From Candidatus Saccharimonadales bacterium (lineage in GTDB: Bacteria > Patescibacteriota > Saccharimonadia > Saccharimonadales > DATKHC01): 64,000 bases of DNA. Where the stretch lies: the NCBI GenBank assembly GCA_038317055.1, contig JBBQBA010000001.1, positions 152,153-216,152 of the forward strand. The letters are read 5' to 3'. The position numbers and the translations under genes are program-made. Below the pieces are notes generated by a model. The model had not been told where the DNA came from, made no database searches, and saw nothing but the letters and a program-made list of their open reading frames with translations. Shown in pieces: positions 38,889-59,488 of this stretch (the first letter of the stretch is position 1; each line of letters starts with the position of its first letter).

Positions 38889-38965
38889 GGGCCATTAGCT
38901 CAGCTGGTTAGAGCACCTGCCTCTTAAGCAGGGTGTCCTGGGTTCAAGTCCCAGATGGCCCTCCA
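38889..38965 (+). tRNA. tRNA-Lys (anticodon CUU)
   Basis: GGGCCATTAGCTCAGCTGGTTAGAGCACCTGCCTCTTAAGCAGGGTGTCCTGGGTTCAAGTCCCAGATGGCCCTCCA: clean cloverleaf, loop CTCTTAA, CCA encoded. Confidence 0.95.
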
Positions 38966-39011
38966 AAATGCTTATGCTTAATCTGTTACTAAGTGTTAAA
39001 CTAGAAATAGA

Positions 39012-39224
39012 ATGAAAATATCTATGAATTACGTACCATTAGTTCAAAGGCATAAACCCGAACAGCCAATAGATTTTTTTGATGATATAACAATTTCAGA
39101 ATTAGACTTGATGATAAGTGTAACGGCTAGGTTAAAAAGAATGTCACCTGAAGCTCAAGACATGATCTCAGAAATAGCTGGTGGATTAGTTGAAATAAAT
39201 GATCGTAAACAACTAACTACTTAG
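39012..39224 (+). CDS. cassette 1 ORF: hypothetical protein (70 aa)
   Basis: Only ORF between the tRNA and R1. No recognisable domain. Confidence 0.4.
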   Translation: MKISMNYVPLVQRHKPEQPIDFFDDITISELDLMISVTARLKRMSPEAQDMISEIAGGLVEINDRKQLTT

Positions 39225-39240
39225 ATAGACTTCCATAATA

Positions 39241-39284
39241 AGTAGATATAACCATCACTGTCGCCCTCCAAAATGGTTATGTTT
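39241..39284 (+). repeat. cassette-boundary repeat R1 (family A)
   Basis: AGTAGATATAACCATCACTGTCGCCCTCCAAAATGGTTATGTTT. Arms ATAACCAT/ATGGTTAT. Core has 1 mismatch to the tRNA end. Confidence 0.85.
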
Positions 39285-39327
39285 AAACAGAGATAACTTT
39301 ATCTATGTTTTTTGTTATTATTAGGCA

Positions 39328-39873
39328 ATGAACGTTTTAATATTGCATGGTATTCAAGGAAAAGCTGGAGAAAATTGGACTCATTGGCTAAGTGATTCTT
39401 TAACAGCCAAGTCCTATAACGTAATAATGCCCACTTTACCAAATGCTGATCACCCAGATCGTACTGAATGGCTGGAAGCGATTAAACAAATCACCCGAAA
39501 CATTTCTGATGATCTTATTATCGTTGCCCATTCATTAGGAGTAACAAGTGCTTTAGATTTCATAGAACAATCCCCTACTCCCATAAATGGTCTCGTTAGT
39601 GTCTCAGGCTTTGCCAATGATTATGGATTTAAGTTAAACAGCTACTTTTTGAAGGAGAGGAAGTTAGATTTTGATAAGATCAATAATAATTTAGGCAGTT
39701 CATTTGTATATTACGGAGACAACGACCCATATGTTACTCAAGAGGCTCTAGCTATATTAGCAAAGGACTTAAAAGTAAAACCAACCATTATTAAATACGG
39801 TGGGCATTTAAACAAAGCCACAGGGTTTACTGAATTCCCTCAACTCTTAGAGGCAATTGAGTCTATAAAATAA
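39328..39873 (+). CDS. cassette 2 ORF: serine hydrolase, YdeN/RBBP9-like alpha/beta fold
   Basis: 181 aa. VLILHGIQGKAGENWTHWL and nucleophile elbow VAHSLGV, the typical layout of the small Ser_hydrolase family. Confidence 0.7.
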   Translation: MNVLILHGIQGKAGENWTHWLSDSLTAKSYNVIMPTLPNADHPDRTEWLEAIKQITRNISDDLIIVAHSLGVTSALDFIEQSPTPINGLVSVSGFANDYGFKLNSYFLKERKLDFDKINNNLGSSFVYYGDNDPYVTQEALAILAKDLKVKPTIIKYGGHLNKATGFTEFPQLLEAIESIK

Positions 39874-39884
39874 TTCTGTGAAAT

Positions 39885-39928
39885 AGTAGATATAACCATC
39901 ACTGTGGCCCTCCAATACGGTTATGTTT
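39885..39928 (+). repeat. cassette-boundary repeat R2 (family A)
   Basis: AGTAGATATAACCATCACTGTGGCCCTCCAATACGGTTATGTTT. Perfect core. Confidence 0.9.
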
Positions 39929-39959
39929 AAAACTATGGTTGTTGTATATTTAATTCATA

Positions 39960-40220
39960 ATGAAAAAAGTTAAAACTCCAAAAAGGTTAAAAAATCTATT
40001 AATTTTGCTATATATATTTTTACCAATTTTCGGTTTCCTTTTGATATGGCTACCCGCACATAAAGTATCTACTCCAACTAGTTTCCAAGGATTGAGTACT
40101 ACATTCAAAACCCTATTAGTTTTATTTTGGATTTCTCTAATAGGTTTATTGACAACTGTAACCTTAATATTAGTAGATGTAATGAAAATATATATCATTC
40201 CTCAATTACGTAAAAAATAA
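39960..40220 (+). CDS. cassette 3 ORF: small two-TM membrane protein (86 aa)
   Basis: Preferred over the antisense 39950..40198 ORF because it has two clean hydrophobic helices and basic termini. Confidence 0.45.
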   Translation: MKKVKTPKRLKNLLILLYIFLPIFGFLLIWLPAHKVSTPTSFQGLSTTFKTLLVLFWISLIGLLTTVTLILVDVMKIYIIPQLRKK

Positions 40221-40241
40221 AAAGATACACTTATTTAAATT

Positions 40242-40288
40242 CAGTTGCGATAACAAGCTCGGTGGCCCTCCAAAGCATAAGTGTTATT
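40242..40288 (+). repeat. cassette-boundary repeat R3 (family B)
   Basis: CAGTTGCGATAACAAGCTCGGTGGCCCTCCAAAGCATAAGTGTTATT. Arms ATAACA..GCT/AGC..TGTTAT with bulges. Perfect core. Confidence 0.85.
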
Positions 40289-40292
40289 TATT

Positions 40293-40886
40293 TCAAATTT
40301 TAATCTTAGAAGCTTTCCGCGATTTACTACGATGAGAGATAATAATAGTTGCCCAAAGTAATCCATTAGAGAACATTAAATAGGCAGGATATATCCATGC
40401 TGATGGTGGGTATGCCTTGAGGGATAATAGAGTAAGCAACGTCGCTAATACTCCTAAAGCAAAAGTGATGTAAGTTTCCTCTTCGGGATTTTGCCATGAA
40501 TGTCTTACTGTAGGAATAGTACCTATAAAGTCAATCGATAAAGTAGCTACAATTGCAATCATCGGTGAATTAAACACTAGCCATAACACTAACCCAACTA
40601 CTGCCCCAATTAGACAGAACAAATCAAATGAATCAAATTTAGCTATTCCATATCTTAACCCTACGATTACCACAGCAAATGTGGCTACTGTATCTGCTGT
40701 AACGAGCATCGCTGCTCGATACTGATGAGAAGCAAATAATGCTGCCGCTCCAATACCTATTAATAATGTCCATGTAGACCAAGTAACTATATTAGGTTTA
40801 GTTTTTCCTTTAACTGTGTCAATGATGTAAGGAACAGTACAAAATAAAATAATCAGTGCACCAGTTATAGCAAGTAGTTCTTTCAT
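40293..40886 (-). CDS. cassette 4 ORF: multi-pass membrane protein (197 aa)
   Basis: About 6 hydrophobic helices. No confident family call. Confidence 0.5.
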   Translation of the reverse strand: MKELLAITGALIILFCTVPYIIDTVKGKTKPNIVTWSTWTLLIGIGAAALFASHQYRAAMLVTADTVATFAVVIVGLRYGIAKFDSFDLFCLIGAVVGLVLWLVFNSPMIAIVATLSIDFIGTIPTVRHSWQNPEEETYITFALGVLATLLTLLSLKAYPPSAWIYPAYLMFSNGLLWATIIISHRSKSRKASKIKI

Positions 40887-40928
40887 TTATTAAATAATAA
40901 CATTAGATATTCGCGGGTTAGTTATTCT

Positions 40929-40970
40929 GGTTGATATAGACAGTACGGTGGCCCTCCAATAATGTTTTAT
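40929..40970 (+). repeat. cassette-boundary repeat R4 (family C)
   Basis: GGTTGATATAGACAGTACGGTGGCCCTCCAATAATGTTTTAT. The left 30 nt are identical to R8. Confidence 0.85.
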
Positions 40971-41533
40971 TTAGGAAGTTTTTCACCTGCCGCATCGACG
41001 AGACCTGAATAAAAGAAGAATCTCTCTTTTTTATCTGGCTTTAATGGATTAATCTTAGCGTCAAGATCTACTATTTCTTGAAGTTTATTAATGTCGACCA
41101 TATCATTAGTATTTAAGTCATCGAGGCGCACTATCTTTAGTTCATTTGATGCAGGATAGTAATACTGAAGCTCAGTTGGTCGTACTTTTTGTCGGTGAAT
41201 ATTATGAGTTTGCGGTTGAATTAATATAAAACGAACTAGCAGGGGTGGAATGTTTGGCTCCAGGGTAGCATCACGATACTCACCAACCTGATAAGTAAGT
41301 CCACCGCGTCTATATATTTTTTCTCTAAAATTTACTACAGTAGCCATTGAGTCTACCCATCCAACTACTTGAACAGGGCTGGAATCTAAAGCCGCATCTG
41401 TGAGACGACAGATTTCATCTGTATAAAATTCTTCTCTTGGCATTTTACTAGTAATAAGTACTGGCTCTCCAGTCAAATCTGCCAACACACTTATTTCTTC
41501 AAATATATTACTAGGTAATTTCTCTGGACTCAT
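40967..41533 (-). CDS. cassette 5 ORF: hypothetical protein (188 aa)
   Basis: Its stop codon (TAA) is the complement of TTA inside the right arm of R4. No recognisable domain. Confidence 0.5.
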   Translation of the reverse strand: MSPEKLPSNIFEEISVLADLTGEPVLITSKMPREEFYTDEICRLTDAALDSSPVQVVGWVDSMATVVNFREKIYRRGGLTYQVGEYRDATLEPNIPPLLVRFILIQPQTHNIHRQKVRPTELQYYYPASNELKIVRLDDLNTNDMVDINKLQEIVDLDAKINPLKPDKKERFFFYSGLVDAAGEKLPK

Positions 41534-41590
41534 AGTAATCCTATTCTATTTGTATTAGTAATATAATCAAGCAGTAGCTTTTTGAATACT

Positions 41591-41634
41591 AATAGATATA
41601 ACCATCACTGTGTCCCTCCAATATGGTTATGGTT
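41591..41634 (+). repeat. cassette-boundary repeat R5 (family A)
   Basis: AATAGATATAACCATCACTGTGTCCCTCCAATATGGTTATGGTT. Core has 1 mismatch. Confidence 0.85.
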
Positions 41635-43834
41635 TTTTGTTTAAAATTCTGTTTAATCTATGTCTGATCCTAGGTGTTATTCCTCCTGTTATCATTGAAC
41701 CAAAACGATAGACAGGTAATTCTATACCTTCTTTATCTATAATCTTAGCTATATTCCCCTTATCTATACCTACGCTATTAGCAAAAGCTTTTATACTTAA
41801 CACGCCAGTAGGCGCTAAGGGGGTATCCAAAAGTAGCCTAACTTGTGGCAAATTTCTAACAGTATCCTGCATATCAGCATCTAGACCTCCAGAAATCTTC
41901 GGGCCAAACTTATAATCAGGTAACTCAATTTCGTTAGCTTCTAGAATAACCTTTAGGGTAGTGAATGCCATACCAATTTCTTTAGCGAAAGCATTAACAC
42001 TTTTTATCTCATCCTTAGGGGTTGGGCTCAATTCTACAAGTCCTTCTAGAAAGTCTTGCTGGCTTTTGGTTAGTCCTCTGGTTATAACTCCACCAAATTT
42101 ATATTTCAATGCATCTATGTTTTGTTCATCTACTAGTCTTTCCACTGTCGATCGAGCCGCATTATGGGTTTTAGCAAAAGATAATAGACTTACAACTCCT
42201 TCTTGCGCTACAGGGGTATAAGCTATTGCAAGTCCGATAATATGCGTTAACTGTTCTTGATTAATAGCATCGGATATATAGCCGTTATCAAACCTGTATC
42301 TTGGTAACTCCCATTCATTATCGGCAGCAATCTTTAAAATCGTTGGTTTTGATAGACCAGTAATCTTGGAAGCATCAGAAATACTAACATAATCATCAGG
42401 TGAGTATTCTATAGACAGCAATGACTCATATTTTTCTAGTAAGTTTACTACTAGCTTGTCGAATTCAAAATCACCATGATTTGTATGAATAATTAAATCA
42501 CCAATATCAATATCGCTATTACTTACATTTATTATCACATTATCTCCGTCTAGAATAGTTCCATCTTTCTCCCCTATTTCTGTTCTACGAGTTCTAATAG
42601 CTTCAGCCAAATCTCTAATCATCACGATCCTTTCAGCGTTTGCCATAAAATCCAGTACAGATACTCTGTCCTTACCAGCGTGTTTTCGTAAACCCCTTCC
42701 CAATTGCTGTTCAAAGATAGTTGGACTCTCAGTACTTCTAAGGAAAACTAACAGACGAGCATCTGGAATGTCTACTCCTTCATTAAACATATCTCTGGTC
42801 GTAATTATTTGAAGATCTCTATATCTAAAATCATTAAGTGTATCTTCTTTTTGTTTTTTATCCTTTATACCTGAATGATATGGTTTACCGCCTAGCAATT
42901 CTGCAATTTCTGCTGCATGCTCAATATTCTGACAAAAGACTATAGTTTTTACAGATCCAAATTCCAATCCAATTTTTTTCATTTCTTCTCTAATATTATT
43001 GGCAATGACCTCATTTCGTGGTTTAACCTTAAATAATTCCGTCAATGCACGAAGACTGCTCGCTTCAAAACCTGATTCCATTGCCTCTTTAACAGCATCA
43101 TCAAATACAATGTGATAATCTGGATCAGCCAATAGTCCCTCTGCAAGAGCTTCTGCAAGGCTTTTGCTATATAATTCTTGGCCAAATAGTTCTCTAATAT
43201 TTAACCTATCTAGTCGATTTGGAGTTGCTGTTAAAGCAAGCTGAAATTTCGGTTTAAAATGCTTAATCACAGCTTCAAATGTTTCAGCTTTTCCATGATG
43301 AGCTTCGTCATAAATAATATAATCAAAATATCCTTGTTTAAATGTATCTAATGAGCTATTTAATGATTGTAGAGTTGCAAAAGTTATATCTTGGTCAATA
43401 TCCTTCTCTTCACCATTGAAGAAACCTTGTGTGGCATCAGGGATAAAAGATGAAAATCGCTCCGCCGCCTGTTCGTTAATTTCGTTTTTGTGGCTTGCAA
43501 AGAGAATACGGGGACCATATTTACGTTTTCCTGAGTACTCTTGTCGATATTTTATTACGTCAAATACTGCTACAGATGTCTTACCAAGACCAGTTGCGAG
43601 ATGGATTAAGCCTGTATTTGCGCCACTGTTTCTGGCTTCCCACAGAGCACCCCAAGCATCTAATTGATATTCACGTACTTCAAAATCTTGGGCTTCAACA
43701 TATATCTCAGGGTCGAAATCTTCAGCAGATACTTCCTCTATGAAACCTTCTCTTAAATTAATACATGCTTGAATAAACGACGCAACATTTTTACGTCGCT
43801 CTTCTAAATCAGCGTTTTCTTTAGACTGCTCCAT
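41627..43834 (-). CDS. cassette 6 ORF: SF2 helicase (DEAH, type III restriction Res-subunit-like) with four C-terminal HTH-like repeats
   Basis: 735 aa. Walker A ATGLGKTSVA, DEAHH, TATPNR, QQLGRGLR. The C-terminal ~260 aa carry 4 repeats ending ..ELP.YRFG/YKFG... The stop lies in the right arm of R5. Confidence 0.8.
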   Translation of the reverse strand: MEQSKENADLEERRKNVASFIQACINLREGFIEEVSAEDFDPEIYVEAQDFEVREYQLDAWGALWEARNSGANTGLIHLATGLGKTSVAVFDVIKYRQEYSGKRKYGPRILFASHKNEINEQAAERFSSFIPDATQGFFNGEEKDIDQDITFATLQSLNSSLDTFKQGYFDYIIYDEAHHGKAETFEAVIKHFKPKFQLALTATPNRLDRLNIRELFGQELYSKSLAEALAEGLLADPDYHIVFDDAVKEAMESGFEASSLRALTELFKVKPRNEVIANNIREEMKKIGLEFGSVKTIVFCQNIEHAAEIAELLGGKPYHSGIKDKKQKEDTLNDFRYRDLQIITTRDMFNEGVDIPDARLLVFLRSTESPTIFEQQLGRGLRKHAGKDRVSVLDFMANAERIVMIRDLAEAIRTRRTEIGEKDGTILDGDNVIINVSNSDIDIGDLIIHTNHGDFEFDKLVVNLLEKYESLLSIEYSPDDYVSISDASKITGLSKPTILKIAADNEWELPRYRFDNGYISDAINQEQLTHIIGLAIAYTPVAQEGVVSLLSFAKTHNAARSTVERLVDEQNIDALKYKFGGVITRGLTKSQQDFLEGLVELSPTPKDEIKSVNAFAKEIGMAFTTLKVILEANEIELPDYKFGPKISGGLDADMQDTVRNLPQVRLLLDTPLAPTGVLSIKAFANSVGIDKGNIAKIIDKEGIELPVYRFGSMITGGITPRIRHRLNRILNKKP

Positions 43835-43917
43835 TTGAGATGATATTTTAACATTTTATTAGGTTTTTTTCAAGATTCCCTAGTTCTAGTAATTGTTTAT
43901 TATGCCTAGGGTTCTAA

Positions 43918-43963
43918 TAGTAGATATAACCATCACTGTGGCCCTCCAGAATGGTTATGCTTT
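43918..43963 (+). repeat. cassette-boundary repeat R6 (family A)
   Basis: TAGTAGATATAACCATCACTGTGGCCCTCCAGAATGGTTATGCTTT. Perfect core. Confidence 0.9.
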
Positions 43964-44018
43964 TATTTACTATCAGAAAAGAATATAATTCTAAAAATAA
44001 GTTATCGGAGAAATATGT

Positions 44019-44294
44019 ATGTTTGAAAGATTTTCTAGAACTCCAAAAATGCGTGGTCCAAGGTTTGATAAACACGGAAAAATGATAGGTTTAATTATTA
44101 GGTCTGCGGAACCAGTACGATTTGCTCATACCAATACTTACCTTCCTTTCTCCCCTCAACAACAAGATATTCCACCATCTACAGAATCAACTGAGACACC
44201 AGTTTCAATTTATGATCAATATCCAGAATTACTTGATTCAAGTAAGCTAAAAAATCCACCACCTAGCCTGCCAGAGGATCAAACGCAAGAGTAG
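44019..44294 (+). CDS. cassette 7 ORF: hypothetical protein (91 aa)
   Basis: Its TAG stop is the first TAG of R7. No recognisable domain. Confidence 0.4.
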   Translation: MFERFSRTPKMRGPRFDKHGKMIGLIIRSAEPVRFAHTNTYLPFSPQQQDIPPSTESTETPVSIYDQYPELLDSSKLKNPPPSLPEDQTQE

Positions 44295-44333
44295 AGATAA
44301 CCATCACGATGGCCCTCCAATATGGTTATGGTT
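44291..44333 (+). repeat. cassette-boundary repeat R7 (family A)
   Basis: GTAGAGATAACCATCACGATGGCCCTCCAATATGGTTATGGTT. Shares 12 nt (GATGGCCCTCCA) with the tRNA end. Confidence 0.9.
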
Positions 44334-44383
44334 AAAATTACTTTATTGTTAAATTTCCTTTGTTTGATTATGCTTAAATAAAC

Positions 44384-45085
44384 ATGGACGATCAAGACAC
44401 TCCTTCACAATCATCAATGCCCGATAATCAACCACCAGTAATTTCGGTACAGCAACCAGCACCAGAAACTAATCCAAATAACACAGTTCTGAATCCCCAT
44501 ACAACTCACTCGAAGAAAAAGTTATTACCTATATGTATCTCAGCGTTAGTTTTATTAATCACCTTAGGAATTGTCGGTACCATATATTATTTAAGTCATC
44601 ATAAAACAGTTAGTTCAAAGAATGCGACAATAATTTCTAAAACGCTAATCATTATTAACCCCGACGACACTAAAATAGAACAAGACTTAGCATCAATAGG
44701 AAATACGCTTGCCAATTATCCAAGTGAAGGAAATTCATTTTCAGCTCCGTTTATACCAGATAATATTAACCAATTACCGCAGACTAAACTTAACTATAAA
44801 GCCAGTTCATATAGTTATAAGGTTATTGCAAATGATGGTGGAGAAAAAAGTAATAAAATTATCTACCAAATATGTGCAAACTTTAATAAAAACACATTCA
44901 ACGTTTCGGCTTATAATAATATTTTTAGTACTTCTGGTGTTGATGGTACTTCAGCAGATTCATACGTCGTACATTCAAGCAGAATGCAATGTTTTACTAA
45001 CGATATAAGTTTTATGGGTCAGGGCCTTTCCTTAAACCTAAATAACAGCGAGATTAAATATAAAAGTCAACTTCAGACCAATTAA
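44384..45085 (+). CDS. cassette 8 ORF: membrane-anchored extracytoplasmic protein (233 aa, hypothetical)
   Basis: Pro/Gln-rich N-terminus, one TM (LLPICISALVLLITLGIVGTIYYL), then a globular part. Confidence 0.5.
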   Translation: MDDQDTPSQSSMPDNQPPVISVQQPAPETNPNNTVLNPHTTHSKKKLLPICISALVLLITLGIVGTIYYLSHHKTVSSKNATIISKTLIIINPDDTKIEQDLASIGNTLANYPSEGNSFSAPFIPDNINQLPQTKLNYKASSYSYKVIANDGGEKSNKIIYQICANFNKNTFNVSAYNNIFSTSGVDGTSADSYVVHSSRMQCFTNDISFMGQGLSLNLNNSEIKYKSQLQTN

Positions 45086-45095
45086 ATTAAATTTA

Positions 45096-45150
45096 TAGTA
45101 GTTGATATAGACAGTACGGTGGCCCTCCAAAGCATAAGCACTTTGTTATA
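45096..45150 (+). repeat. cassette-boundary repeat R8 (family C)
   Basis: TAGTAGTTGATATAGACAGTACGGTGGCCCTCCAAAGCATAAGCACTTTGTTATA. Perfect core. Confidence 0.85.
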
Positions 45151-45159
45151 CTGTGCGTA

Positions 45160-45516
45160 ATGGCTAAAACAGTTATTGTATTTCTGTCCCTGTTTTTAAT
45201 ATCTTTATTAATTACTTTTTCGTCGGTAAAAATTGCTACTACCACGCTTACCGATGGCAGCACACCATACACTTTTTTATCACACTTTGCATACACGTCT
45301 CCTGTCAAACAATCTGATGGATTATGCACAGGTTCGAATTTACACGACTACCATAAATCTGGATGGCCTCTACAATACGAATATCGTATTCCCGATGAAC
45401 CGGGGTGTGGTGATTTTAATTATCCATTAATTTTCGTAATCGACCTTTTGTTCTACTTGATTGTATTTTCAATTACGTGGGTCGGGTTGACGATTCTCAA
45501 GAAACACAAATCATAG
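45160..45516 (+). CDS. cassette 9 ORF: small membrane protein (118 aa, hypothetical)
   Basis: N- and C-terminal hydrophobic helices. Its TAG stop is the first 3 nt of R9. Confidence 0.45.
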   Translation: MAKTVIVFLSLFLISLLITFSSVKIATTTLTDGSTPYTFLSHFAYTSPVKQSDGLCTGSNLHDYHKSGWPLQYEYRIPDEPGCGDFNYPLIFVIDLLFYLIVFSITWVGLTILKKHKS

Positions 45517-45558
45517 TTGCGATAACGACTACTATGGCCCTCCAATATGCTTATGCTT
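45514..45558 (+). repeat. cassette-boundary repeat R9 (family B)
   Basis: TAGTTGCGATAACGACTACTATGGCCCTCCAATATGCTTATGCTT. The right arm is identical to the sequence 3' of the tRNA gene. Confidence 0.88.
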
Positions 45559-45592
45559 GCAATATATTAAAGATAGAAGATAATTTATATAA

Positions 45593-45919
45593 ATGTCACT
45601 ACATGAAATATATACCGACGAAGATACAAAAAATCTACGAGATGCTATAGGTAAATCAATAGTTAGGTCAACTGTTGTGACAGTTTTAAATGTAGAACCA
45701 GGACCATGGAATCTTAAAGACTTAGCTGAAGTTATTTCAACAGAGGCAGGACGATTACTCCCCAAATCTTCTCCCATTACTGGTTATCTAGGCACAGTCA
45801 TGATTAATATGCTTCATAGTGGTGAGCTTCAACAACATGACGGCTTTGGTGGTCTTGAACCTGGTATTAGCTTCCCTAGATCAGAATTCATACAAAGTCA
45901 TATGCAAACACCAAAGTAG
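45593..45919 (+). CDS. cassette 10 ORF: hypothetical protein (108 aa)
   Basis: Its TAG stop lies at the start of R10. No recognisable domain. Confidence 0.45.
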   Translation: MSLHEIYTDEDTKNLRDAIGKSIVRSTVVTVLNVEPGPWNLKDLAEVISTEAGRLLPKSSPITGYLGTVMINMLHSGELQQHDGFGGLEPGISFPRSEFIQSHMQTPK

Positions 45920-45958
45920 AAATAAGTTCCACGTTGGCCCTCCAATATGGTTGTGTTT
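45917..45958 (+). repeat. cassette-boundary repeat R10
   Basis: TAGAAATAAGTTCCACGTTGGCCCTCCAATATGGTTGTGTTT. Perfect core, divergent left arm. Confidence 0.8.
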
Positions 45959-45990
45959 ATTTTTGTTAGTAATACTGTTAAAGTACAGAA

Positions 45991-46215
45991 ATGATGAAGA
46001 AGATAGCTCTTGCAGTAATAATACTGTTAATTGTTGGCGTTGGTGTACTTGTTTGGAAGCACGAACAACAACCACGAATTAGTAAATCTCTCAAATATAA
46101 CAATAATTCTCAACAAGTCTGTCTTAACGAATACTATAATAAACACCCTGAAGTAAGAAATCTCAAACAAGAAGATGTAGTCTCTGCATCTCATTGCTAT
46201 GTTCTTACTCAATAA
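45991..46215 (+). CDS. cassette 11 ORF: small signal-anchored protein (74 aa)
   Basis: MMKKIALAVIILLIVGVGVLVW N-terminal helix. No recognisable domain. Confidence 0.4.
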   Translation: MMKKIALAVIILLIVGVGVLVWKHEQQPRISKSLKYNNNSQQVCLNEYYNKHPEVRNLKQEDVVSASHCYVLTQ

Positions 46216-46255
46216 TTTACAGAAGCAAAAGTTTTACTGCCACTATTTCTAATTT

Positions 46256-46299
46256 CAGTTGCTATATCTTCTACTGAGGTCCTCCAATACAGTTGTGCT
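46256..46299 (+). repeat. cassette-boundary repeat R11 (family B-like, degenerate)
   Basis: CAGTTGCTATATCTTCTACTGAGGTCCTCCAATACAGTTGTGCT. Core has 1 mismatch. Confidence 0.7.
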
Positions 46300-46311
46300 A
46301 AACTTATAGAA

Positions 46312-46557
46312 ATGAATAGGAAGAAGTACTGGTACTCTTCGCAAGGTAATGGTTTATTGCCAATACCTATTGCTCCTCAAGGCTGGTATAACATAATCAT
46401 TGCAGCGGTTGTAGCACTAGTTGCTGCAATTATCTTTTTGCCGCTTCATGATGATCCTACCCAAACGCAGATTAATAAGTTTTTGATTATTGCCATTCCT
46501 GATGCCGTAATTTTCACATTTCTTGTATTTAACAAAAAAGAGCCCCGACAGCATTAA
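46312..46557 (+). CDS. cassette 12 ORF: small two-TM membrane protein (81 aa)
   Basis: Two hydrophobic helices. No recognisable domain. Confidence 0.4.
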   Translation: MNRKKYWYSSQGNGLLPIPIAPQGWYNIIIAAVVALVAAIIFLPLHDDPTQTQINKFLIIAIPDAVIFTFLVFNKKEPRQH

Positions 46558-46567
46558 CGTTTGCTTG

Positions 46568-46617
46568 CAGTACGGTTGCCATAGCCACCACTATGGCCCT
46601 CCAATACGCTTATGCTT
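46568..46617 (+). repeat. cassette-boundary repeat R12
   Basis: CAGTACGGTTGCCATAGCCACCACTATGGCCCTCCAATACGCTTATGCTT. Perfect core. Confidence 0.8.
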
Positions 46618-46699
46618 CTTTGCACATTATCTACGATGTTAAGACCAAACCTATAGCAAATAGATTCATACATGTGAATAATTAGCTCCTCACTGCTCT

Positions 46700-46972
46700 T
46701 TAACGATATTTGTGCACAGCTGACGCCGTCATGAAGGCCACAAAAACTGTGATAACCAAACCGCCCATATCGATTACTTCTCCAGCAAATGGAATAAGGA
46801 TTGCCGCGACTGCTTCAGGTGTTGCTATGAGTAATAACAATGGCGCAATTTTCAAAAAAAGATTTTCATCTTTGCTTAACAAAAAATATTTGTAAGCATG
46901 AAGCCAACTTTGCTTTGGTTTAGTTCGATATGAAACTGTATATACGTCTTTCATTGCTAAAAGTATATGCAT
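46700..46972 (-). CDS. cassette 13 ORF: small membrane protein (90 aa, hypothetical)
   Basis: Only sizeable ORF between R12 and R13. Hydrophobic C-terminal half. Confidence 0.4.
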   Translation of the reverse strand: MHILLAMKDVYTVSYRTKPKQSWLHAYKYFLLSKDENLFLKIAPLLLLIATPEAVAAILIPFAGEVIDMGGLVITVFVAFMTASAVHKYR

Positions 46973-47056
46973 AAAAATGCAATTTGTATGTTAATAAAAT
47001 CACAATTCAATATTAATATAAATAGTACAGATTTTGTCACTTATATTTCGTTTACA

Positions 47057-47090
47057 ATAGCGAAAAGATGGAACTCCAATATGCTTATGC
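47057..47090 (+). repeat. cassette-boundary repeat R13 (degenerate)
   Basis: ATAGCGAAAAGATGGAACTCCAATATGCTTATGC. Core has 2 mismatches. Right arm intact. Confidence 0.6.
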
Positions 47091-47093
47091 ATC

Positions 47094-47525
47094 TTAATCT
47101 ATATTTTTCTGCATATCACCAAGTTGTAGTATTTCAGGAATAGGAATACCCGCTTCAGTTAAAGTATTTATAAGAAGACTTCTTTCAATTTGAATTGTAG
47201 GCCCTATTTCCTCCAAATCATTTATGTGTCTTCTATTAATTACTTCCGATCTTAAAACCATCACTCCATTTATTACTGCTGGAGCAGCATAATATGCAAA
47301 AGCATCTCTAGCAGAGGAGAAGCCGTCAATAGCTCCAAGAGTTGTACCAATAGCAATCACCGAAAGTGCATTTATCAATCTTTGTGTTTTCATTTCTGAT
47401 CTTGTTCGTTCTATAGAAGTTGCTACTAAAACACCATTAAGCTCAATGGATTCTTTATTAGGCACTTTAGAAAATAGTTTCTTCACTGTGTATACTTTTA
47501 TACACATTCGCCTGTAATACGGCAA
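47094..47525 (-). CDS. cassette 14 ORF: hypothetical protein (143 aa; true start may be the internal MKTQRL)
   Basis: Its stop lies 4 nt after R13. One hydrophobic segment. Confidence 0.4.
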   Translation of the reverse strand: MPYYRRMCIKVYTVKKLFSKVPNKESIELNGVLVATSIERTRSEMKTQRLINALSVIAIGTTLGAIDGFSSARDAFAYYAAPAVINGVMVLRSEVINRRHINDLEEIGPTIQIERSLLINTLTEAGIPIPEILQLGDMQKNID

Positions 47526-47544
47526 GCAGTAGCAATTTGAAGAT

Positions 47545-47590
47545 TAGTAGATATAACCATCACGGTGGCCCTCCAAAATGGTTATGCTTT
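47545..47590 (+). repeat. cassette-boundary repeat R14 (family A)
   Basis: TAGTAGATATAACCATCACGGTGGCCCTCCAAAATGGTTATGCTTT. Perfect core. Confidence 0.9.
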
Positions 47591-47624
47591 CAGAAGTAAG
47601 TATTCGAGGTTATCCTTTATACAT

Positions 47625-48227
47625 ATGCAGCTTCATCAAGAACATCATGTAGACCAATTAGAGATGGTAAAAGAGATTAGAGAAAAAGAGGTTAAAGGTC
47701 AATTAGGTTTTATAGCTATTTCGGGATTTGGTGGCTCAGGTAAATCTACATTTTCAGGAGAAATAAGAGAAAGATTGGATCAATGTGAAGTTGTACCTAT
47801 CGATGACTTCATTATTGGACGTAGGGATGAGCGGTCTAGTGATTGGAGTACATTTGATAGAAATAGATTGCATGAAGACATTCTAAAAGTAGCTCGTCCT
47901 AATGTACCTTTAAGTTATAAGATTTATAACAGTGGCGAATGGGTCGCTGGCAAAGGTGGAATATCGAGAACTATTACACCCCAAAAGTTTCTTATAGTTG
48001 AAGGTTGTGGCATATTACATCCCGACCTAATGCCATATTATGACTATTCAGTATGGATTGGTCAGTCCGGGGATACTGCTTGGGAAAAGGCTAAGACTAG
48101 AGATAGATCCGAAGGTAACAATAATGATCAACTATGGGATGAAATATGGGGACCTAATGACATTGATTATTTTAATAAGTATCGACCAGATCAATTAGCT
48201 ACAGCAATAATTGATCCATCAAAGTAA
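47625..48227 (+). CDS. cassette 15 ORF: P-loop kinase (uridine kinase/PRK-like)
   Basis: Start moved to the ATG at 47625, because the track start at 47565 lies inside R14. Walker A SGFGGSGKST. IVEGCGILH. Confidence 0.6.
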   Translation: MQLHQEHHVDQLEMVKEIREKEVKGQLGFIAISGFGGSGKSTFSGEIRERLDQCEVVPIDDFIIGRRDERSSDWSTFDRNRLHEDILKVARPNVPLSYKIYNSGEWVAGKGGISRTITPQKFLIVEGCGILHPDLMPYYDYSVWIGQSGDTAWEKAKTRDRSEGNNNDQLWDEIWGPNDIDYFNKYRPDQLATAIIDPSK

Positions 48228-48240
48228 AATTTTATGCCCT

Positions 48241-48283
48241 TAAATATAACACCCACTGTGGACATCCAATGTGGTTATGCTTT
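48241..48283 (+). repeat. cassette-boundary repeat R15 (family A, degenerate)
   Basis: TAAATATAACACCCACTGTGGACATCCAATGTGGTTATGCTTT. Core has 2 mismatches. Confidence 0.65.
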
Positions 48284-48346
48284 ATTAGCAATTTTTTGAT
48301 ACTATTCTTCATTTCTAAAATCCAATAAAGACTGCATAATAGAATT

Positions 48347-48637
48347 ATGAAGAAACTAAATATTAATGAATTAGATAAACAACTGAAACAGTTATCAAAT
48401 TGGTCCTTAGTTAACGGAAAACTATACAAGGAGTTTATTTTTACTGATTTTAAAAATGCTTTTAGTTTTATGACTGAAGTTGCTAAAAAGGCAGACACAA
48501 TGGATCACCATCCCGATTGGAGTAATTCATACAATAAGGTAGGCATTAATCTTTCAACACATTCAGCAGGTGGAATAACAGAAATCGATATTAAATTTGC
48601 AAAAGCAATCGAAAAATCTGCAAGTAAATATCATTAG
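48347..48637 (+). CDS. 4a-hydroxytetrahydrobiopterin (pterin-4a-carbinolamine) dehydratase
   Basis: 96 aa. ..FKNAFSFMTEVAKKADTMDHHPDWSNSYNKV..L.TH.. is the PCD/DCoH signature. Confidence 0.85.
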   Translation: MKKLNINELDKQLKQLSNWSLVNGKLYKEFIFTDFKNAFSFMTEVAKKADTMDHHPDWSNSYNKVGINLSTHSAGGITEIDIKFAKAIEKSASKYH

Positions 48638-48698
48638 AGTTATATTTTGTGAAGTTAGTATTTAGAAATGTTAAATACATTTTTGATATAATTAACTT

Positions 48699-49067
48699 AT
48701 GAGCGGTTCAAATATAAAAGTTGATGAATACCTAAAAACTTTGCCAAAATGGAAAAAAACTAATTTGGAAATATTTAGAAAACTAGTTCATGGTGCAGAC
48801 TTTTCAATTACTGAAGACTTAAAATGGAGTGTCCCGGTTTTCATAATTAACAATAAGATGGTTTTTGCCATGGCTGCTTTTAAGGCTCACACTAAATTTA
48901 ACTTTATAGCAAATGGAGCCTTAATTGATGATAAGGATCATCTATTTAATAATGGGTTTGATTCCAAAAAATCCCGAGGAATTGATCTTAAAGAGAACGA
49001 GGAAATTAATAATCCAAAGTTACTAGTCCTTATTAAAGCTGCTATAGAAAATATCAGTAGTAAATGA
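48699..49067 (+). CDS. DUF1801 (YdhG-like) domain protein
   Basis: 122 aa. VDEYLKTLP..W....L..IRKLV....P...E.LKW..PVF pattern. Confidence 0.65.
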   Translation: MSGSNIKVDEYLKTLPKWKKTNLEIFRKLVHGADFSITEDLKWSVPVFIINNKMVFAMAAFKAHTKFNFIANGALIDDKDHLFNNGFDSKKSRGIDLKENEEINNPKLLVLIKAAIENISSK

Positions 49068-49109
49068 ATAACTACTTACTATACGTTCACCTCAAAAATA
49101 GTTGGTTAT

Positions 49110-49517
49110 CTAAATTGCTTTCATACGATTATTACGAGGATTGTGCTCTAGTTCAGCAAGATCAAGTGCCTCAAGTAACGGTGGCATATATACTCCGAAC
49201 CGGCCCCTTAGTCCTTTCTTAATTCCATACCAACCACCAGCCGGATTGGATGAAGATCTTGCCCATGCTTCAACTGTTCCACCGGCTGCTGGTTTCTGTT
49301 CATCAGCACCACCAAGTAGCATCCAGTCACCATGTTTTTTAAGCATTTTATGAAGATCATCAATTGCACTTCGCTTGTAGCCAAGAGTAGTTTTGCCAAC
49401 TACACAGACAATTGTATCTGTAGATTCATCAATATACATTTGATAATCTGAAGAACCTGGGGGTGTTTTTAAATTCCAGGGATCTTTTTTAGTTCCTTTT
49501 CCCGAAGCTTTACTCAT
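49110..49517 (-). CDS. conserved hypothetical protein (135 aa)
   Basis: The strongly patterned sequence (DPWNLKTPPG..., GDWMLLGGADEQKP, GGWYGIKKGLRGRFG) looks like a conserved family, but I cannot name it with certainty. Confidence 0.5.
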   Translation of the reverse strand: MSKASGKGTKKDPWNLKTPPGSSDYQMYIDESTDTIVCVVGKTTLGYKRSAIDDLHKMLKKHGDWMLLGGADEQKPAAGGTVEAWARSSSNPAGGWYGIKKGLRGRFGVYMPPLLEALDLAELEHNPRNNRMKAI

Positions 49518-49545
49518 AAGTTAATCCTTATTTAATTTCTATGTA

Positions 49546-50142
49546 TTAGTATAGCTGTTTAAAACGAAAACATTCTTCTATATGATCGTTGACCATGCCA
49601 GTTGCTTGCATAAACGAGTAACAAATTGTAGGTCCTACGAAATTCATACCTCTATTCTTTAAATCTTTACTTAATCTTAATGCTACAAAACTTGAACTTG
49701 GTAAATCTTTAAGATTAGAGATCTTATTTTGAATTGTTTTTCCATTAACATATTCCCATAAATAACTATCAAAACTACCAAACTCTTTTTGTATAGTAAT
49801 TATTGCTTTAGCATTACTAATGACTGACATTATTTTTAGTCTATTACGAATTATTTCCGGATTATTCATTAGCTTTTTTATTTTTATCTCATTAAAGTCA
49901 GCTACTGTTTTAATATCAAAGTTAGCAAAAGCTTGTCTATATCCTTTTCTTTTACGTAGTACTGTCAGCCAACTTAAACCAGCTTGAGCTCCTTCTAATG
50001 TTAAAAGCTCAAAAAGTAGTTGGTCATCGTGCAGCGGTACACCCCATTCTTTGTCATGATATGCAGCATATAACTCGTCATCACCGCACCAATCACATCT
50101 GGTTAGTGGTTTAGCATTGATTATTTTCGTAATATTTTTCAC
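49546..50142 (-). CDS. tag: DNA-3-methyladenine glycosylase I
   Basis: 198 aa. RC.WCGDD.LY..YHD.EWGVP, FELLTLEGAQAGLSW and the C-terminal zinc-ligand H..C. Confidence 0.9.
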   Translation of the reverse strand: MKNITKIINAKPLTRCDWCGDDELYAAYHDKEWGVPLHDDQLLFELLTLEGAQAGLSWLTVLRKRKGYRQAFANFDIKTVADFNEIKIKKLMNNPEIIRNRLKIMSVISNAKAIITIQKEFGSFDSYLWEYVNGKTIQNKISNLKDLPSSSFVALRLSKDLKNRGMNFVGPTICYSFMQATGMVNDHIEECFRFKQLY

Positions 50143-50455
50143 CCCAATTAGCCATCTGTTTTAAGATCGGCAGGAGATCATTCCCTTTTTGGGTAAGAGT
50201 GTATTCAATATGAGGTGGTACTTCGGCAAATTTTTGTTTTGTGATAATGCCATGAGTTTCTAAATCATCTAAACGTTTACTGAGAGTTCTAGGATTAATA
50301 CCGTTGACAGATTTTTCGAGTTCATTAAATCGACTTGGCCCCTTATTTAAATCACGCAAAATAAGCGCCGTCCATTTATTTCCCATTATCTCCATGGCAC
50401 TCGCTATGCAGCCGGATTTTGGTTCTATTTGTTGAATTACTGATGTAGTTTTCAT
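50111..50455 (-). CDS. HxlR family transcriptional regulator
   Basis: 114 aa. MEIMGNKWTALILRDL..GPSRFNELEKSV.GINPRTLSKRLDDLE..GII. Confidence 0.85.
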   Translation of the reverse strand: MKTTSVIQQIEPKSGCIASAMEIMGNKWTALILRDLNKGPSRFNELEKSVNGINPRTLSKRLDDLETHGIITKQKFAEVPPHIEYTLTQKGNDLLPILKQMANWGEKYYENNQC

Positions 50456-50537
50456 ACTTTACTAAGTATAGTATTGGGTCTATACTGCTCTTTACTATAT
50501 AAAGTATATCATAAAAATCTAAATGAGGGAAAATTAT

Positions 50538-51125
50538 ATGAAATTACAAATTATTATTGGAAGTACACGGCCAGAACGAGTCAGCGATAGAATCGCAGAT
50601 TGGGTAGCAGCAGAAGCGGGTGAACTAAATCATACTGAAGTAGAAATTGTTGATTTAGCCGACTATAAAATGCCTTTTTTCGATGAACCCGGTCCTCCAC
50701 AATATCTTCCGGAGCGTAACCCGGTACCTGAAGTAACAAAATTCATCACTAAGTTAGATAAAGCTGATGCATTTGTAATAGTAACCCCTGAATATAATCG
50801 TTCATACCCTGCAGTTTTAAAAAACGCGTTAGATTTTATTGATTTTCAATTTAAACAGAAGCCAATTGCCTTAGTTGCACATGGTTCAAGTGGTGGTGCG
50901 CAAGCAGTTAGTCATTTAAGAGGAACAATACCCGGTTTACTGGGAGTAACTATCCCCTCGGCAACCTATCTTGTTGGTAGAGCCGGTGAAATGATAAATG
51001 GAGAAGGCGTATTACAGGAAGAATTAAAAGCAAATCCATATGGACCACAATCTGCATTAAAGAAAATGCTAACTGAACTTAAGTGGTATAGTGATGCACT
51101 AGCCTCGGCGCGCGCGAAAGACTAA
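50538..51125 (+). CDS. NAD(P)H-dependent FMN reductase family protein
   Basis: Start at the ATG at 50538 (GAGGGA upstream). IIIGSTRPERVS, IVTPEYNRSYPAVLKNALD. Confidence 0.8.
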   Translation: MKLQIIIGSTRPERVSDRIADWVAAEAGELNHTEVEIVDLADYKMPFFDEPGPPQYLPERNPVPEVTKFITKLDKADAFVIVTPEYNRSYPAVLKNALDFIDFQFKQKPIALVAHGSSGGAQAVSHLRGTIPGLLGVTIPSATYLVGRAGEMINGEGVLQEELKANPYGPQSALKKMLTELKWYSDALASARAKD

Positions 51126-51144
51126 ATATTGATATAGTGTTTAG

Positions 51145-51540: not shown

Positions 51541-51568
51541 GCATTAGTTGTGTTGCTATTATATATCT

Positions 51569-51862: not shown

Positions 51863-51934
51863 TTAAATTATAATCTTGCCAAAGTTTAAAAATAACCATA
51901 AGATTTAATTAAATAATTAAAAGTTAGGAAAATA

Positions 51935-59375: not shown

Positions 59376-59452
59376 GCACCCTTAGCTCAGCTGGATAGAG
59401 CGTCTGTCTTCGGAACAGAAGGTCGTAGGTTCGAATCCTACAGGGTGCACCA
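59376..59452 (+). tRNA. tRNA-Arg (anticodon UCG)
   Basis: GCACCCTTAGCTCAGCTGGATAGAGCGTCTGTCTTCGGAACAGAAGGTCGTAGGTTCGAATCCTACAGGGTGCACCA: cloverleaf, loop CTTCGGA, CCA encoded. Confidence 0.95.
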
Positions 59453-59488
59453 TATTTGTTATGCTACAATTTAGTTAAATTTTATATT

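Follow-up and report, generated by a model that had tools for sequence, protein, structure and literature searches.

What is the origin of the long series of single-gene units that lies directly downstream of a tRNA-Lys gene in a Saccharibacteria genome, and by what enzyme could such units have been assembled? The whole stretch of DNA analysed, hereafter the window, is 64 kb long, and an earlier note had described in it an array of 15 repeats after tRNA-Lys(CUU), interpreted as a cassette platform.

The repeat array at tRNA-Lys

As shown in Table 1, the array is real: tRNA-Lys(CTT) is followed by 15 co-oriented repeats of about 45 bp, which divide 9.3 kb into 15 units of 296-2328 bp. Exact GGCCCTCCA occurred 11 times in the window, always on the forward strand and between 38957 and 47575, against a shuffle expectation of 0.17, and allowing 1-3 mismatches gave 15 core copies in addition to the 3' end of the tRNA itself. 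An nhmmer profile built from the 15 copies found no other significant match in the 64-kb window, and none downstream of R15. The repeat core is indeed the last 9 nt of the tRNA gene, as had been claimed, with 9-10 nt, (T)GGCCCTCCA, common to the sites; likeness to the tRNA reaches about 9 nt further leftward (consensus GTCCACGGT in 156 related copies, GTCCCAGAT in the tRNA). The claimed match of the right arm to the tRNA 3' flank was confirmed as a resemblance (A[AT]A[CT]G[GC]TTATG[CT]TT and AAATGCTTATGCTT, respectively), but not for every copy, R3 and R8 having an inverted arm type and R13 and R15 being strongly degenerate repeats.

Each unit holds one main ORF, ten on the forward and five on the reverse strand, in agreement with the first reading, except that unit 3 is ambiguous (86 aa on the forward or 82 aa on the reverse strand). 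Repeat direction stays constant even for units with the ORF on the opposite strand. The serine hydrolase, SF2 helicase and P-loop kinase read from the sequence were recovered by Pfam as Ser_hydrolase, as ResIII/Helicase_C and, weakly, as a P-loop kinase, the other products being orphans. The cassette 6 product is similar to the helicase portion of Type IV methyl-directed restriction enzymes (PADLOC mREase_IV, 3.6e-45). Family c4 (cassette 4) was also present in arrays at five other loci, with two copies, one per orientation, at L057, and family c11 (cassette 15) at differing array positions in L013, L031, L042 and L050.

Table 1 Features of the tRNA-Lys array in window coordinates; core starts were located with 1-3 mismatches allowed.
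Feature	Position	Strand	Core start	Description	Support
tRNA-Lys(CTT)	38889..38965	+		anchor	ARAGORN; Rfam tRNA 69.9 bits
Array-proximal site	38954..38981	+		attB-like: T-stem/acceptor 3' strand, core, R-arm-type flank (GATGGCCCTCCAAAATGCTTATGCTTAA)	repeat families D4, D5; nhmmer 24.6 bits
Cassette 1 ORF	39012..39224	+		70 aa, orphan	
R1 junction	39238..39286	+	39262	type 1: L arm, core CGCCCTCCA, R arm	
Cassette 2 ORF	39328..39873	+		181 aa, Ser_hydrolase	PF06821, 3.8e-23
R2 junction	39882..39930	+	39906	type 1	
Cassette 3 ORF	39960..40220	+		86 aa, hydrophobic orphan	82-aa opposite-strand ORF called in Logan contig
R3 junction	40240..40288	+	40264	inverted R-arm type AAGCATAAG	
Cassette 4 ORF	40293..40886	-		197-aa membrane protein, family c4	
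R4 junction	40926..40974	+	40950	degenerate R arm; L arm 92% identical to R8 L arm	
Cassette 5 ORF	40967..41533	-		188 aa, orphan	
R5 junction	41588..41636	+	41612	type 1, core GTCCCTCCA	
Cassette 6 ORF	41627..43834	-		735 aa, ResIII/Helicase_C, borderline NUMOD1	Pfam
R6 junction	43916..43964	+	43940	type 1	
Cassette 7 ORF	44019..44294	+		91 aa, orphan	
R7 junction	44287..44335	+	44311	type 1	
Cassette 8 ORF	44384..45085	+		233 aa, orphan	
R8 junction	45097..45145	+	45121	inverted R-arm type AAGCATAAGCAC	
Cassette 9 ORF	45160..45516	+		118 aa, orphan	
R9 junction	45512..45560	+	45536	type 2 (GTTGCGATAAC... / ATGCTTATGC)	
Cassette 10 ORF	45593..45919	+		108 aa, orphan	
R10 junction	45912..45960	+	45936		
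Cassette 11 ORF	45991..46215	+		74 aa, orphan	
R11 junction	46254..46302	+	46278	core GGTCCTCCA	
Cassette 12 ORF	46312..46557	+		81 aa, orphan	
R12 junction	46571..46619	+	46595	type 2	
Cassette 13 ORF	46700..46972	-		90 aa, orphan	
R13 junction	47046..47094	+	47070	strongly degenerate, core GGAACTCCA	nhmmer 24.4 bits
Cassette 14 ORF	47094..47525	-		143 aa, orphan	
R14 junction	47543..47591	+	47567	type 1, top profile match	nhmmer 54.7 bits
Cassette 15 ORF	47565..48227	+		220 aa, P-loop kinase-like, family c11	weak Pfam match
R15 junction	48236..48284	+	48260	strongly degenerate, core GGACATCCA; final recognisable site	

Composite junctions and modular cassettes

Every junction has the make-up of a composite attachment site, with an element-derived L arm (consensus AGTTGCGATAGCGTCCACGGT), an 11-12-bp core, TGGCCCTCCAA, identical to the tRNA-Lys 3' end, and an R arm, A[AT]A[CT]G[GC]TTATGCTTAAA, that imitates the native tRNA-Lys flank. 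Between genomes, the homology of shared cassettes ended within the core on both sides, and the cassette unit therefore runs from core to core. It is ordered as R arm, usually a terminator-like hairpin or T-run, extended -10 promoter motif, ORF and L arm, and contains one ORF or sometimes a toxin-antitoxin pair. T-runs were found in 112 of 197 cassette 5' regions and in 22 of 197 controls, TGnTAnnnT motifs in 108 and 30, respectively, and most cassettes have a promoter-like motif of their own.

A cytochrome-b cassette in L031 and L046 was 90% alike across its full 1.9 kb, with near-identical 3' end, L arm and core, and the likeness ended past GGCCCTCCAAT; VapBC cassettes in five arrays had common sequence from the core rightwards only. 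Across 204 junctions, about 10 of about 10 independent informative pairs tied the L arm to the upstream body and the R arm to the downstream body. Judged from these alignments, strand exchange is within the 11-12-bp core. The repeats thus qualify as recombination scars of the tRNA 3' end, with breakpoints in the core on both sides, and the cassette logic ascribed to the array holds as modular units of one or two genes with core-bounded homology. Arm types agreed inside the window junctions (10/10, type-1 L arms always with type-1 R arms), which a simple core-crossover model does not predict and which counts against the explanation favoured below.

A large serine recombinase family at the same tRNA gene

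A genome scan showed the same layout in nearly all of 60 loci, almost all from Saccharibacteria, anchored at tRNA-Lys(CTT) beside the conserved FolD locus, at tRNA-Lys(TTT) or at a tRNA-Lys 3' fragment. Unit sizes of 0.3-2.3 kb were consistent in dozens of genomes, and in both the window profile search and the scan the repeat was tied to tRNA-Lys throughout, lying downstream of it and never dispersed; the generic dispersed element considered in the earlier note was not encountered. In samples of a single species that did not differ in FolD or tRNA-Lys, the sequence directly 3' of GGCCCTCCA took three forms: the gene of a large serine recombinase (LSR), a kinase cassette and one further sequence. 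The proposed strain comparison thus revealed tRNA-proximal presence/absence polymorphism in one species, but neither excision junctions nor circular forms were seen, and gene order was unchanged in the only same-species contigs for the window, both of which count against the favoured explanation. Rather than an invariant order with no recombinase, which the earlier note had held to speak against its own idea, the related genomes present proximal polymorphism and an associated LSR family.

In L064, FolD and tRNA-Lys are followed by a 540-aa Resolvase+Recombinase+Zn_ribbon_recom protein whose final 13 codons are antisense to tRNA-Lys, and this 5.6-kb element terminates in CTAGTTGCTGTAAGCTCCACTAT GGCCCTCCA, after which the native terminator comes. 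The family measures about 555 aa (1795 found by homologue search), and its tail, W-R-A-x-x-D-S-N-P-R-H, has eight of nine fixed positions invariant and the ninth conserved in at least 90% of 21 aligned members. Close LSR genes converge on tRNA-Lys and end within it, as seen in 17 of 17 close metagenomic relatives with sequence beyond the gene end. The elements are 5-10 kb long, all close family members have the LSR gene positioned at the core, and the array L-arm consensus was present at 11 distal ends of relatives' elements. At locus L076, two small cassettes lie behind an LSR element that itself follows tRNA-Lys. Four LSR elements contain an ORF of 313 aa whose C-terminus is of the HGFRH...Y type, by motifs a putative tyrosine recombinase, which counts against the favoured explanation. 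The tRNA-proximal arm of LSR elements lies within the LSR gene and differs from the cassette R arm, and LSR action on L-core-R sites is therefore only putative. Canonical large serine integrases need a directionality factor to recombine attL-type or attR-type sites, which also counts against the favoured explanation.

A Pfam scan of 50 window ORFs revealed no recombinase of any type, and tblastn detected no LSR homologue anywhere in the window or in 60 array tiles, both of which count against the favoured explanation. A tyrosine recombinase was found neither among the scanned ORFs nor as a recurrent array neighbour. The claim of a missing integrase was thus right for the window but not for related genomes, which carry a dedicated LSR family at exactly the same site; a candidate for the recombinase sought in association with the repeat was found there, but none in the window or the array tiles.

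Alternative explanations, related systems and a proposed origin

Part by part, the integron analogy was not borne out. It is extremely unlikely that the array is a true integron or CALIN, in which the repeats would be attC sites folded as single strands and recombined by an IntI encoded elsewhere. In favour of this are the toxin-antitoxin cassettes, the single ORF per unit with a repeat on its 3' side and a weak inverted repeat, ATAAC...GTTAT, recalling R''/R' boxes, but site folding was weak, inconsistent and not attC-like (-2 to -6 kcal/mol, z -2.2 to +0.9), and arm complementarity over 171 junctions was not junction-specific (3.94 vs 3.80 +/- 0.07 permuted; cassette-wise pairs 4.05). Moreover, the inverted arms span about 38 bp, less than described attC sites, the would-be loop is the best-conserved part, that is the tRNA end, the crossover lies within the core and not at the right-end GTT, and most cassettes have promoter-like motifs. 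We rejected this reading because the window ORFs scanned yielded no IntI and the repeats do not form attC-like hairpins. Also very unlikely is that no dedicated recombinase acted, the repeats being portable RecA homology used in natural transformation, or RNA-level elements (terminator or processing sites), spread by gene conversion. The homogenised look of the window junctions and the T-runs after many sites would fit; however, breakpoints are confined to the 12-bp core, and RecA needs more than 12 bp for efficient exchange, which argues against RecA homology. The fixed tie to tRNA-Lys, the constant repeat orientation and the lack of a matching Rfam family are further points against it.

It is unlikely that the units are decayed full-size LSR elements or prophages at tRNA-Lys, never mobile as cassettes, from which recombinase and backbone were deleted, although full LSR elements exist at this site, the distal window cores R11, R13 and R15 are more degenerate, and tRNA-anchored islands are known to arise by serial integration that leaves degraded elements and partial copies of the tRNA behind (bioRxiv 10.1101/2020.12.28.424599). 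The absence of LSR fragments in the tblastn searches, the consistent unit sizes and the recurrence of the same cassettes in other species and at other positions, where homology breaks exactly at the core to the left and to the right, oppose this, and the uniform anatomy is unlike random-deletion remains of an element with the LSR gene as its tRNA-proximal end. Similarly improbable is that another, unlinked enzyme, such as a chromosomal or element-borne tyrosine recombinase, moved the cassettes and the LSR elements only share the hotspot. Most arrays have no nearby LSR, the 313-aa ORF offers a candidate, and tyrosine integrases usually catalyse tRNA-gene integration (Islander, PMC4383910), yet the LSR gene position at the core, the array L-arm consensus at distal ends of LSR elements and the failure to find a tyrosine recombinase among the scanned window ORFs or as a recurrent array neighbour speak for the LSR.

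Among known systems, SCC/psi-SCC composite islands of staphylococci lie at rlmH (orfX) and are moved by the large serine recombinases CcrAB/CcrC. Their target is the 3' end of a conserved gene, direct target repeats bound the tandem elements, and the elements stack because the target is regenerated upon integration; elements without recombinase share the stack and are thought to move in trans. The Saccharibacteria array, known from sequence alone, is similar in its associated LSR at a conserved-gene 3' end, apparent target regeneration and recombinase-less units, whereas its target is a tRNA gene, its host belongs to a CPR phylum, and an array can reach 15 or more units, each consisting of one gene of 0.3-2.3 kb (SCC elements, roughly 3-60 kb) with a stereotyped terminator/promoter leader. 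Integrons, including sedentary chromosomal integrons and CALINs, likewise have ordered, mostly one-gene cassettes with orphans and some toxin-antitoxin pairs, one kind of recombination site and a fixed chromosomal anchor, next to which insertion would occur here as well. Unlike integrons, which use a tyrosine enzyme, the arrays are associated with a serine recombinase and have double-strand-type sites with a conserved core in place of IntI and attC hairpins, cassettes with promoter-like motifs and one third of ORFs on the opposite strand. In tycheposons, serial tRNA-gene integration pushes older elements distally and leaves partial tRNA copies at boundaries, and 27 of 937 tycheposon-like elements carry an LSR (Hackl et al., bioRxiv 10.1101/2020.12.28.424599); other tRNA-anchored islands are covered by the Islander database (PMC4383910). 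Serial integration, distal shift, tRNA-fragment boundaries and niche or defence cargo are shared with these, but they are several kb long, usually with their own (mostly tyrosine) integrase and a replication module, and number 1-2 per genome on average, whereas the Saccharibacteria units are one-gene and recombinase-less, and their repeat is a composite L-core-R site, more than a tRNA fragment. No description of such a tRNA-Lys cassette system was found in the searchable literature.

Taken together, the sequence evidence makes it reasonably probable that small integrative gene cassettes were stacked here one after another as LSRs integrated them at the 3' end of tRNA-Lys. The recombining enzyme is most likely the Saccharibacteria LSR family, judged by association, because LSR elements integrate at the same tRNA-Lys and share L arm and core. 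A circle with L-core-R would integrate into tRNA-core-R and recreate this target, each integration shifting older cassettes distally, and cassettes without a recombinase would be moved in trans or be picked up and dropped by recombinase elements. With no recombinase in cis at present, the window array may depend for its activity on the presence of an LSR element.

The array behind tRNA-Lys(CTT) in the window

The last nine bases of tRNA-Lys(CTT), GGCCCTCCA, were found in ten further exact copies between 39906 and 47575, all on the + strand, where 0.17 would be expected, and five additional copies of the core in the window carried one to three mismatches. These copies are direct repeats of the tRNA-Lys 3' end, in the orientation of the tRNA and downstream of the intact gene. 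A profile built from the 15 junctions, R1 to R15, gave no other significant match within the 64-kb window. The units are 296-2328 bp long with a coding share of 85%, and each holds one main ORF, 10 on the + strand and 5 on the - strand. Pfam recognised a Ser_hydrolase, a ResIII/Helicase_C protein and a weak P-loop kinase among the cassette ORFs, the others being orphans. The array of 15 one-ORF units after tRNA-Lys had thus been described accurately in the earlier note. Minor corrections concern four junctions: R3 and R8 have a right arm of inverted type, and the sequence of R13 and R15 has strongly degenerated.

This minority right arm reads A(A)AGCATAAGC, which reverse-complements the GCTTATGCTT motif usual elsewhere. 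The minority arm was also found in 11 of 197 junctions in related loci, and it stands directly after the tRNA in L154 and L155, two loci of another species. Left and right arm types agree within the junctions of the window (type 1, 7/7; type 2, 3/3), whereas such agreement was absent globally (171 junctions), and it contrasts with the linkage analysis described below, in which the two arms belong to different cassettes. The matching in the window could result from concerted evolution (local homogenisation) within the array, or this lineage may be under selection to keep a hairpin at the junction.

Coordinates of the array and of related features
Feature	Location	Strand	Remark
tRNA-Lys(CTT)	38889-38965	+	ARAGORN
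Core starts, R1-R8	39262, 39906, 40264, 40950, 41612, 43940, 44311, 45121	+	
Core starts, R9-R15	45536, 45936, 46278, 46595, 47070, 47567, 48260	+	
Minority right arm, R3 and R8	40273-40283, 45130-45141		
Helicase cassette	41627-43834	-	735 aa
Accessory-type genes after R15	48284-52441		
tRNA-Arg(TCG)	59376-59452		478-aa ORF 4 nt on, no Pfam match (59376-60892 region)
Collagen-repeat protein	28824-30095		423 aa
tRNA-Lys 3' fragment (T-arm and acceptor) after tRNA-Trp	L017:1902-2031, L057:1983-2111		
Complete extra tRNA-Lys genes within arrays	L035:2212-2288, L035:3860-3936, L001:1640-1715, L011:1044-1116, L011:1499-1575		
IS1595-family transposase; Replic_Relax protein	L034:2179-3141; L040:5715-6599		contig DAIQON010000002.1
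After tRNA-Lys, form 1	L152		large serine recombinase gene
After tRNA-Lys, form 2	L154, L155		AAGCATAAGCAC right arm, hairpin/T-run, kinase-like cassette
After tRNA-Lys, form 3	L156		third, unrelated sequence
Large serine recombinase elements at tRNA-Lys	L064-L070, L072-L091, L108, L152, L169-L172		
ORF of ~313 aa in four such elements	L084:6866-8089, L086:474-1415, L087:7536-8477, L091:6479-7459		

Several further features of the window were observed. The helicase cassette matched the helicase part of a Type IV methyl-directed restriction system in PADLOC (3.6e-45) and shows a NUMOD1 DNA-binding motif at borderline score; the cassette may thus serve defence with a single gene. Past R15 no further decayed repeats were recognisable, and the last repeat is followed by a run of small accessory-type genes, including pterin-4a dehydratase, DUF1801, DUF6855, methyladenine glycosylase and FMN reductase, with a GC content as low as that of the array (35.2% vs 38.8% upstream). 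A homologue 57% identical to the DUF1801 gene sits in cassette position in L044, an array locus of another genome. These genes may be old cassettes with decayed sites. The tRNA-Arg(TCG) gene lies 20 kb from tRNA-Lys(CTT) in the window and directly beside it in several relatives. The collagen-repeat protein contains collagen triple-helix repeats and a YadA-stalk-like segment, and is possibly a surface fibre of an epibiont.

Related arrays, cassette boundaries and turnover

One genome per prokaryotic species was scanned for GGCCCTCCAANAYGSTTATG, which yielded 60 loci, almost all from Saccharibacteria, and the junction profile showed co-oriented arrays in nearly all of them. The arrays occur in three settings: downstream of tRNA-Lys(CTT) and adjoining conserved FolD, Mur-ligase and response-regulator genes, as in the window; behind tRNA-Lys(TTT); and, in L017 and L057, starting at a 3' fragment of tRNA-Lys just after tRNA-Trp, where either the array or its anchor has moved or the tRNA has lost its 5' part. 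Units hold either one ORF or a pair, e.g. VapBC. Cassette ORFs are mostly co-oriented with the repeat, with the stop codon 10-40 nt upstream of the site. Most are unique among the 60 loci, and a few families, including the 197-aa membrane protein and the P-loop kinase of the window, recur at differing positions.

Copies were absent from the 64-kb window beyond 38954-48284, and in other genomes they run in one orientation per locus beside tRNA-Lys or its 3' fragment. A dispersed intergenic repeat (REP/BIME or MITE) was rejected on this confinement and single orientation, and the generic element with no tRNA association, against which the earlier note had set its idea, was found neither in the window nor in the 60 loci. 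Rfam matched the tRNA only, and a known RNA family was likewise dismissed.

Complete extra tRNA-Lys genes were seen within some arrays. In L001 and L035 a VapBC cassette closes with a full tRNA-Lys(TTT) rather than a left arm, so the site of some cassettes is an entire copy of the tRNA. On one contig an IS1595-family transposase lies at the edge of one array, and a Replic_Relax (replication-relaxation) protein comes after the end of a second array. Arrays of the Saccharibacteria type were also seen on short contigs binned as a Polynucleobacter MAG (L014, 97% identical to L001 across 207 bp) and an Acidobacteriota MAG (L059); these are probably mis-binned.

Cassette boundaries were located by comparing shared cassettes. 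A 1.9-kb cytochrome-b cassette, 90% identical overall between two arrays (L031 and L046), is near-identical through its 3' end, left arm and core, and similarity ends after GGCCCTCCAAT. In VapBC cassettes from five arrays, the shared sequence begins at the core and runs rightwards only, while the preceding left arms differ. An all-against-all linkage test of 204 junctions provided about ten independent informative pairs, and in all of them the left arm went with the upstream body and the right arm with the downstream body, with the break between. Since homology breaks there in the junction comparisons, a cassette runs from core to core with recombination within TGGCCCTCCAA, and the crossover is bounded to positions -1 to +10. 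In a partly manual reading, the consensus left arm (-17 to -8) and right arm (+11 to +20) repeat each other imperfectly in inverted orientation about a centre within the core. T-runs were found in the 5' parts of 112 of 197 cassettes (22/197 in controls), and the extended -10 motif TGnTAnnnT in 108 of 197 leaders (30/197 in controls); a promoter and terminator consensus scan of the window array alone was without enrichment, whereas the broader junction set was enriched. This suggests that each cassette may bring a terminator for its upstream neighbour and its own promoter.

The species of the window was found in one public sample only, Logan SRR19962015, with the same gene order; contigs of that sample were broken at the tRNA and at the repeats. 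In one other species, the FolD protein, tRNA-Lys and upstream DNA were identical across several samples, and three forms were found directly after ...GGCCCTCCA (forms 1 to 3 in the table). The comparison of strains proposed in the earlier note thus revealed cassette-level polymorphism in this species, with the breakpoint exactly at the tRNA end. The same look-up in two further species returned FolD without an adjoining tRNA-Lys.

A large serine recombinase family at tRNA-Lys

In the species with FolD P0084, tRNA-Lys is neighboured by a convergent gene (L064:8335-9957) for a 540-aa protein whose domains are Resolvase, Recombinase and Zn_ribbon_recom. The final 13 codons of this gene (WRAWWDSNPRHAD) are antisense to the T-arm and acceptor strand of the tRNA. 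The element carrying this large serine recombinase (LSR) ends ~5.6 kb away with CTAGTTGCTGTAAGCTCCACTAT GGCCCTCCA; the terminator hairpin that comes next presumably belonged to the tRNA originally. In relatives only, as the window has no member of the family, precomputed Pfam assignments gave PF00239, PF07508 and PF13408, and R11 and S13 of the motif AYVRKS are invariant in the alignment. A search at E<=1e-20 gave 1795 homologues of the protein, and the top 120 are all ~555 aa long. Its tail W-R-A-x-x-D-S-N-P-R-H is conserved among 21 aligned members, with 8 of the 9 fixed positions invariant and the ninth at least 90%. In 80 metagenomic loci, sequence past the gene end was available for 17 close relatives, and each of these overlaps a tRNA-Lys.

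Eleven distal ends of the tRNA-Lys elements match the left-arm consensus of the array repeats. In L076, tRNA-Lys is followed by an 8.4-kb LSR element and then by two small cassettes with full left arm-core-right arm junctions. The LSR gene is preceded by a shared module (ORFs of 81 aa, 69 aa and 178 aa, the last DnaD_N/HTH_36-like), while the cargo varies; by the look of their sequences, two ORF pairs resemble restriction-modification genes. Four elements contain an ORF of ~313 aa, whose C-terminus (HGFRH ... H..S ... Y) reads by eye like a tyrosine recombinase. Distant LSR subfamilies (L095-L150) show the same convergent geometry beside tRNA-Asn, Asp, Trp, Ser, Gln, Gly, Tyr, His and Met; within 10 kb of those tRNAs, a crude test for arrays turned up no additional copy of their 3' 14-mer.

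Possible origin and significance of the array

The arrays are tied to tRNA-Lys, their cassettes are modules that meet in the core, and the tRNA-proximal position is polymorphic. The LSR family occupies the same tRNA-Lys site, and its elements carry the left arm of the array. Recombination at the cassette sites would be the work of the LSR: a circle bearing left arm-core-right arm would recombine with tRNA-core-right arm, regenerating the target and leaving a left arm-core-right arm junction behind, so that cassettes would stack with the newest beside the tRNA. Cassettes lacking a recombinase would be moved in trans. Alternatively, cassettes might be picked up when an LSR element excises via a more distal left arm-core. 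The proposed action of the LSR on cassette circles has two weak points: the cassette right arm is unlike the LSR elements' own proximal arm, and serine integrases of the canonical kind work in one direction. That the array is purely a graveyard of decayed elements at the tRNA is unlikely, as the cassette anatomy is stereotyped, the breakpoints are exact, and LSR remnants were not found: tblastn with the LSR detected no homologue in the window or the 60 array loci. The Pfam scan of 50 window ORFs gave no recombinase and no Phage_integrase match, and no recurrent recombinase cluster adjoins the arrays in the 60 loci. A phage origin was rejected, the repeat pattern and the LSR profile being without match in IMG/VR viral contigs.

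The array is not an integron, as the integron logic proposed in the earlier note did not extend to the parts. An IntI-type tyrosine recombinase was not found beside the array among the 50 window ORFs by Pfam or the neighbours of the 60 loci. As single strands the 15 copies fold weakly (-2.1 to -6.4 kcal/mol, z -2.2 to +0.9) into no common structure, and arm complementarity within the same junction was at the permuted level (permutation test, 171 junctions), being a property of the consensus and not of individual junctions. An attC-like hairpin was rejected on these grounds. The most conserved segment of the array repeat is the would-be loop, and the crossover lies centrally, not at a GTT on the right end. 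Integron cassettes are mostly promoterless and served by a platform promoter, whereas motif counts show array leaders rich in promoter-like motifs. The likeness lies in the units, one or two ORFs plus one site with homology breaking in the core on both sides, and, for chromosomal integrons, in granularity and cargo. Closest in working are the SCC/psi-SCC composite islands of staphylococci, which combine a serine recombinase, a regenerated target and stacked elements, some without recombinase; tRNA-anchored accretion islands of the tycheposon type are also similar. The combination of a tRNA target, a serine recombinase and self-insulated single-gene cassettes, kept across a CPR phylum, is different from SCC, accretion islands and the integron. 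No description of such an array was found in the Saccharibacteria/Patescibacteria literature, covering open-access papers and bioRxiv preprints.

Our boldest reading, to which we give a substantial but clearly less than even chance, is a gene-capture platform across the phylum Saccharibacteria and perhaps other CPR: a functional integron analogue made of unrelated parts, with tRNA-Lys as docking site, an LSR from small integrative elements as enzyme, and self-contained cassettes of one gene, each with a terminator, a promoter and half-sites, that are excised singly, exchanged between species and re-inserted beside the tRNA. Integration at tRNA genes is usually ascribed to tyrosine integrases (Islander, PMC4383910). 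If true, our reading would tie a cassette array to a serine and not a tyrosine recombinase, and LSRs to tRNA genes as targets. The LSR family with its short defined sites is a candidate source of integration tools for Patescibacteria, for which, to our knowledge, few genetic tools exist. The cargo seen comprises toxin-antitoxin pairs, a restriction-like helicase, membrane proteins and kinases, and the arrays would be a natural place to search for host-interaction and defence genes. Saccharibacteria live as epibionts with genomes of ~1 Mb, and the finding bears on the gain and loss of accessory genes in genomes so reduced; if true, gene flux in the phylum would have a main route in this conserved hotspot, which stores a dozen or more single-gene cassettes, each insulated individually.
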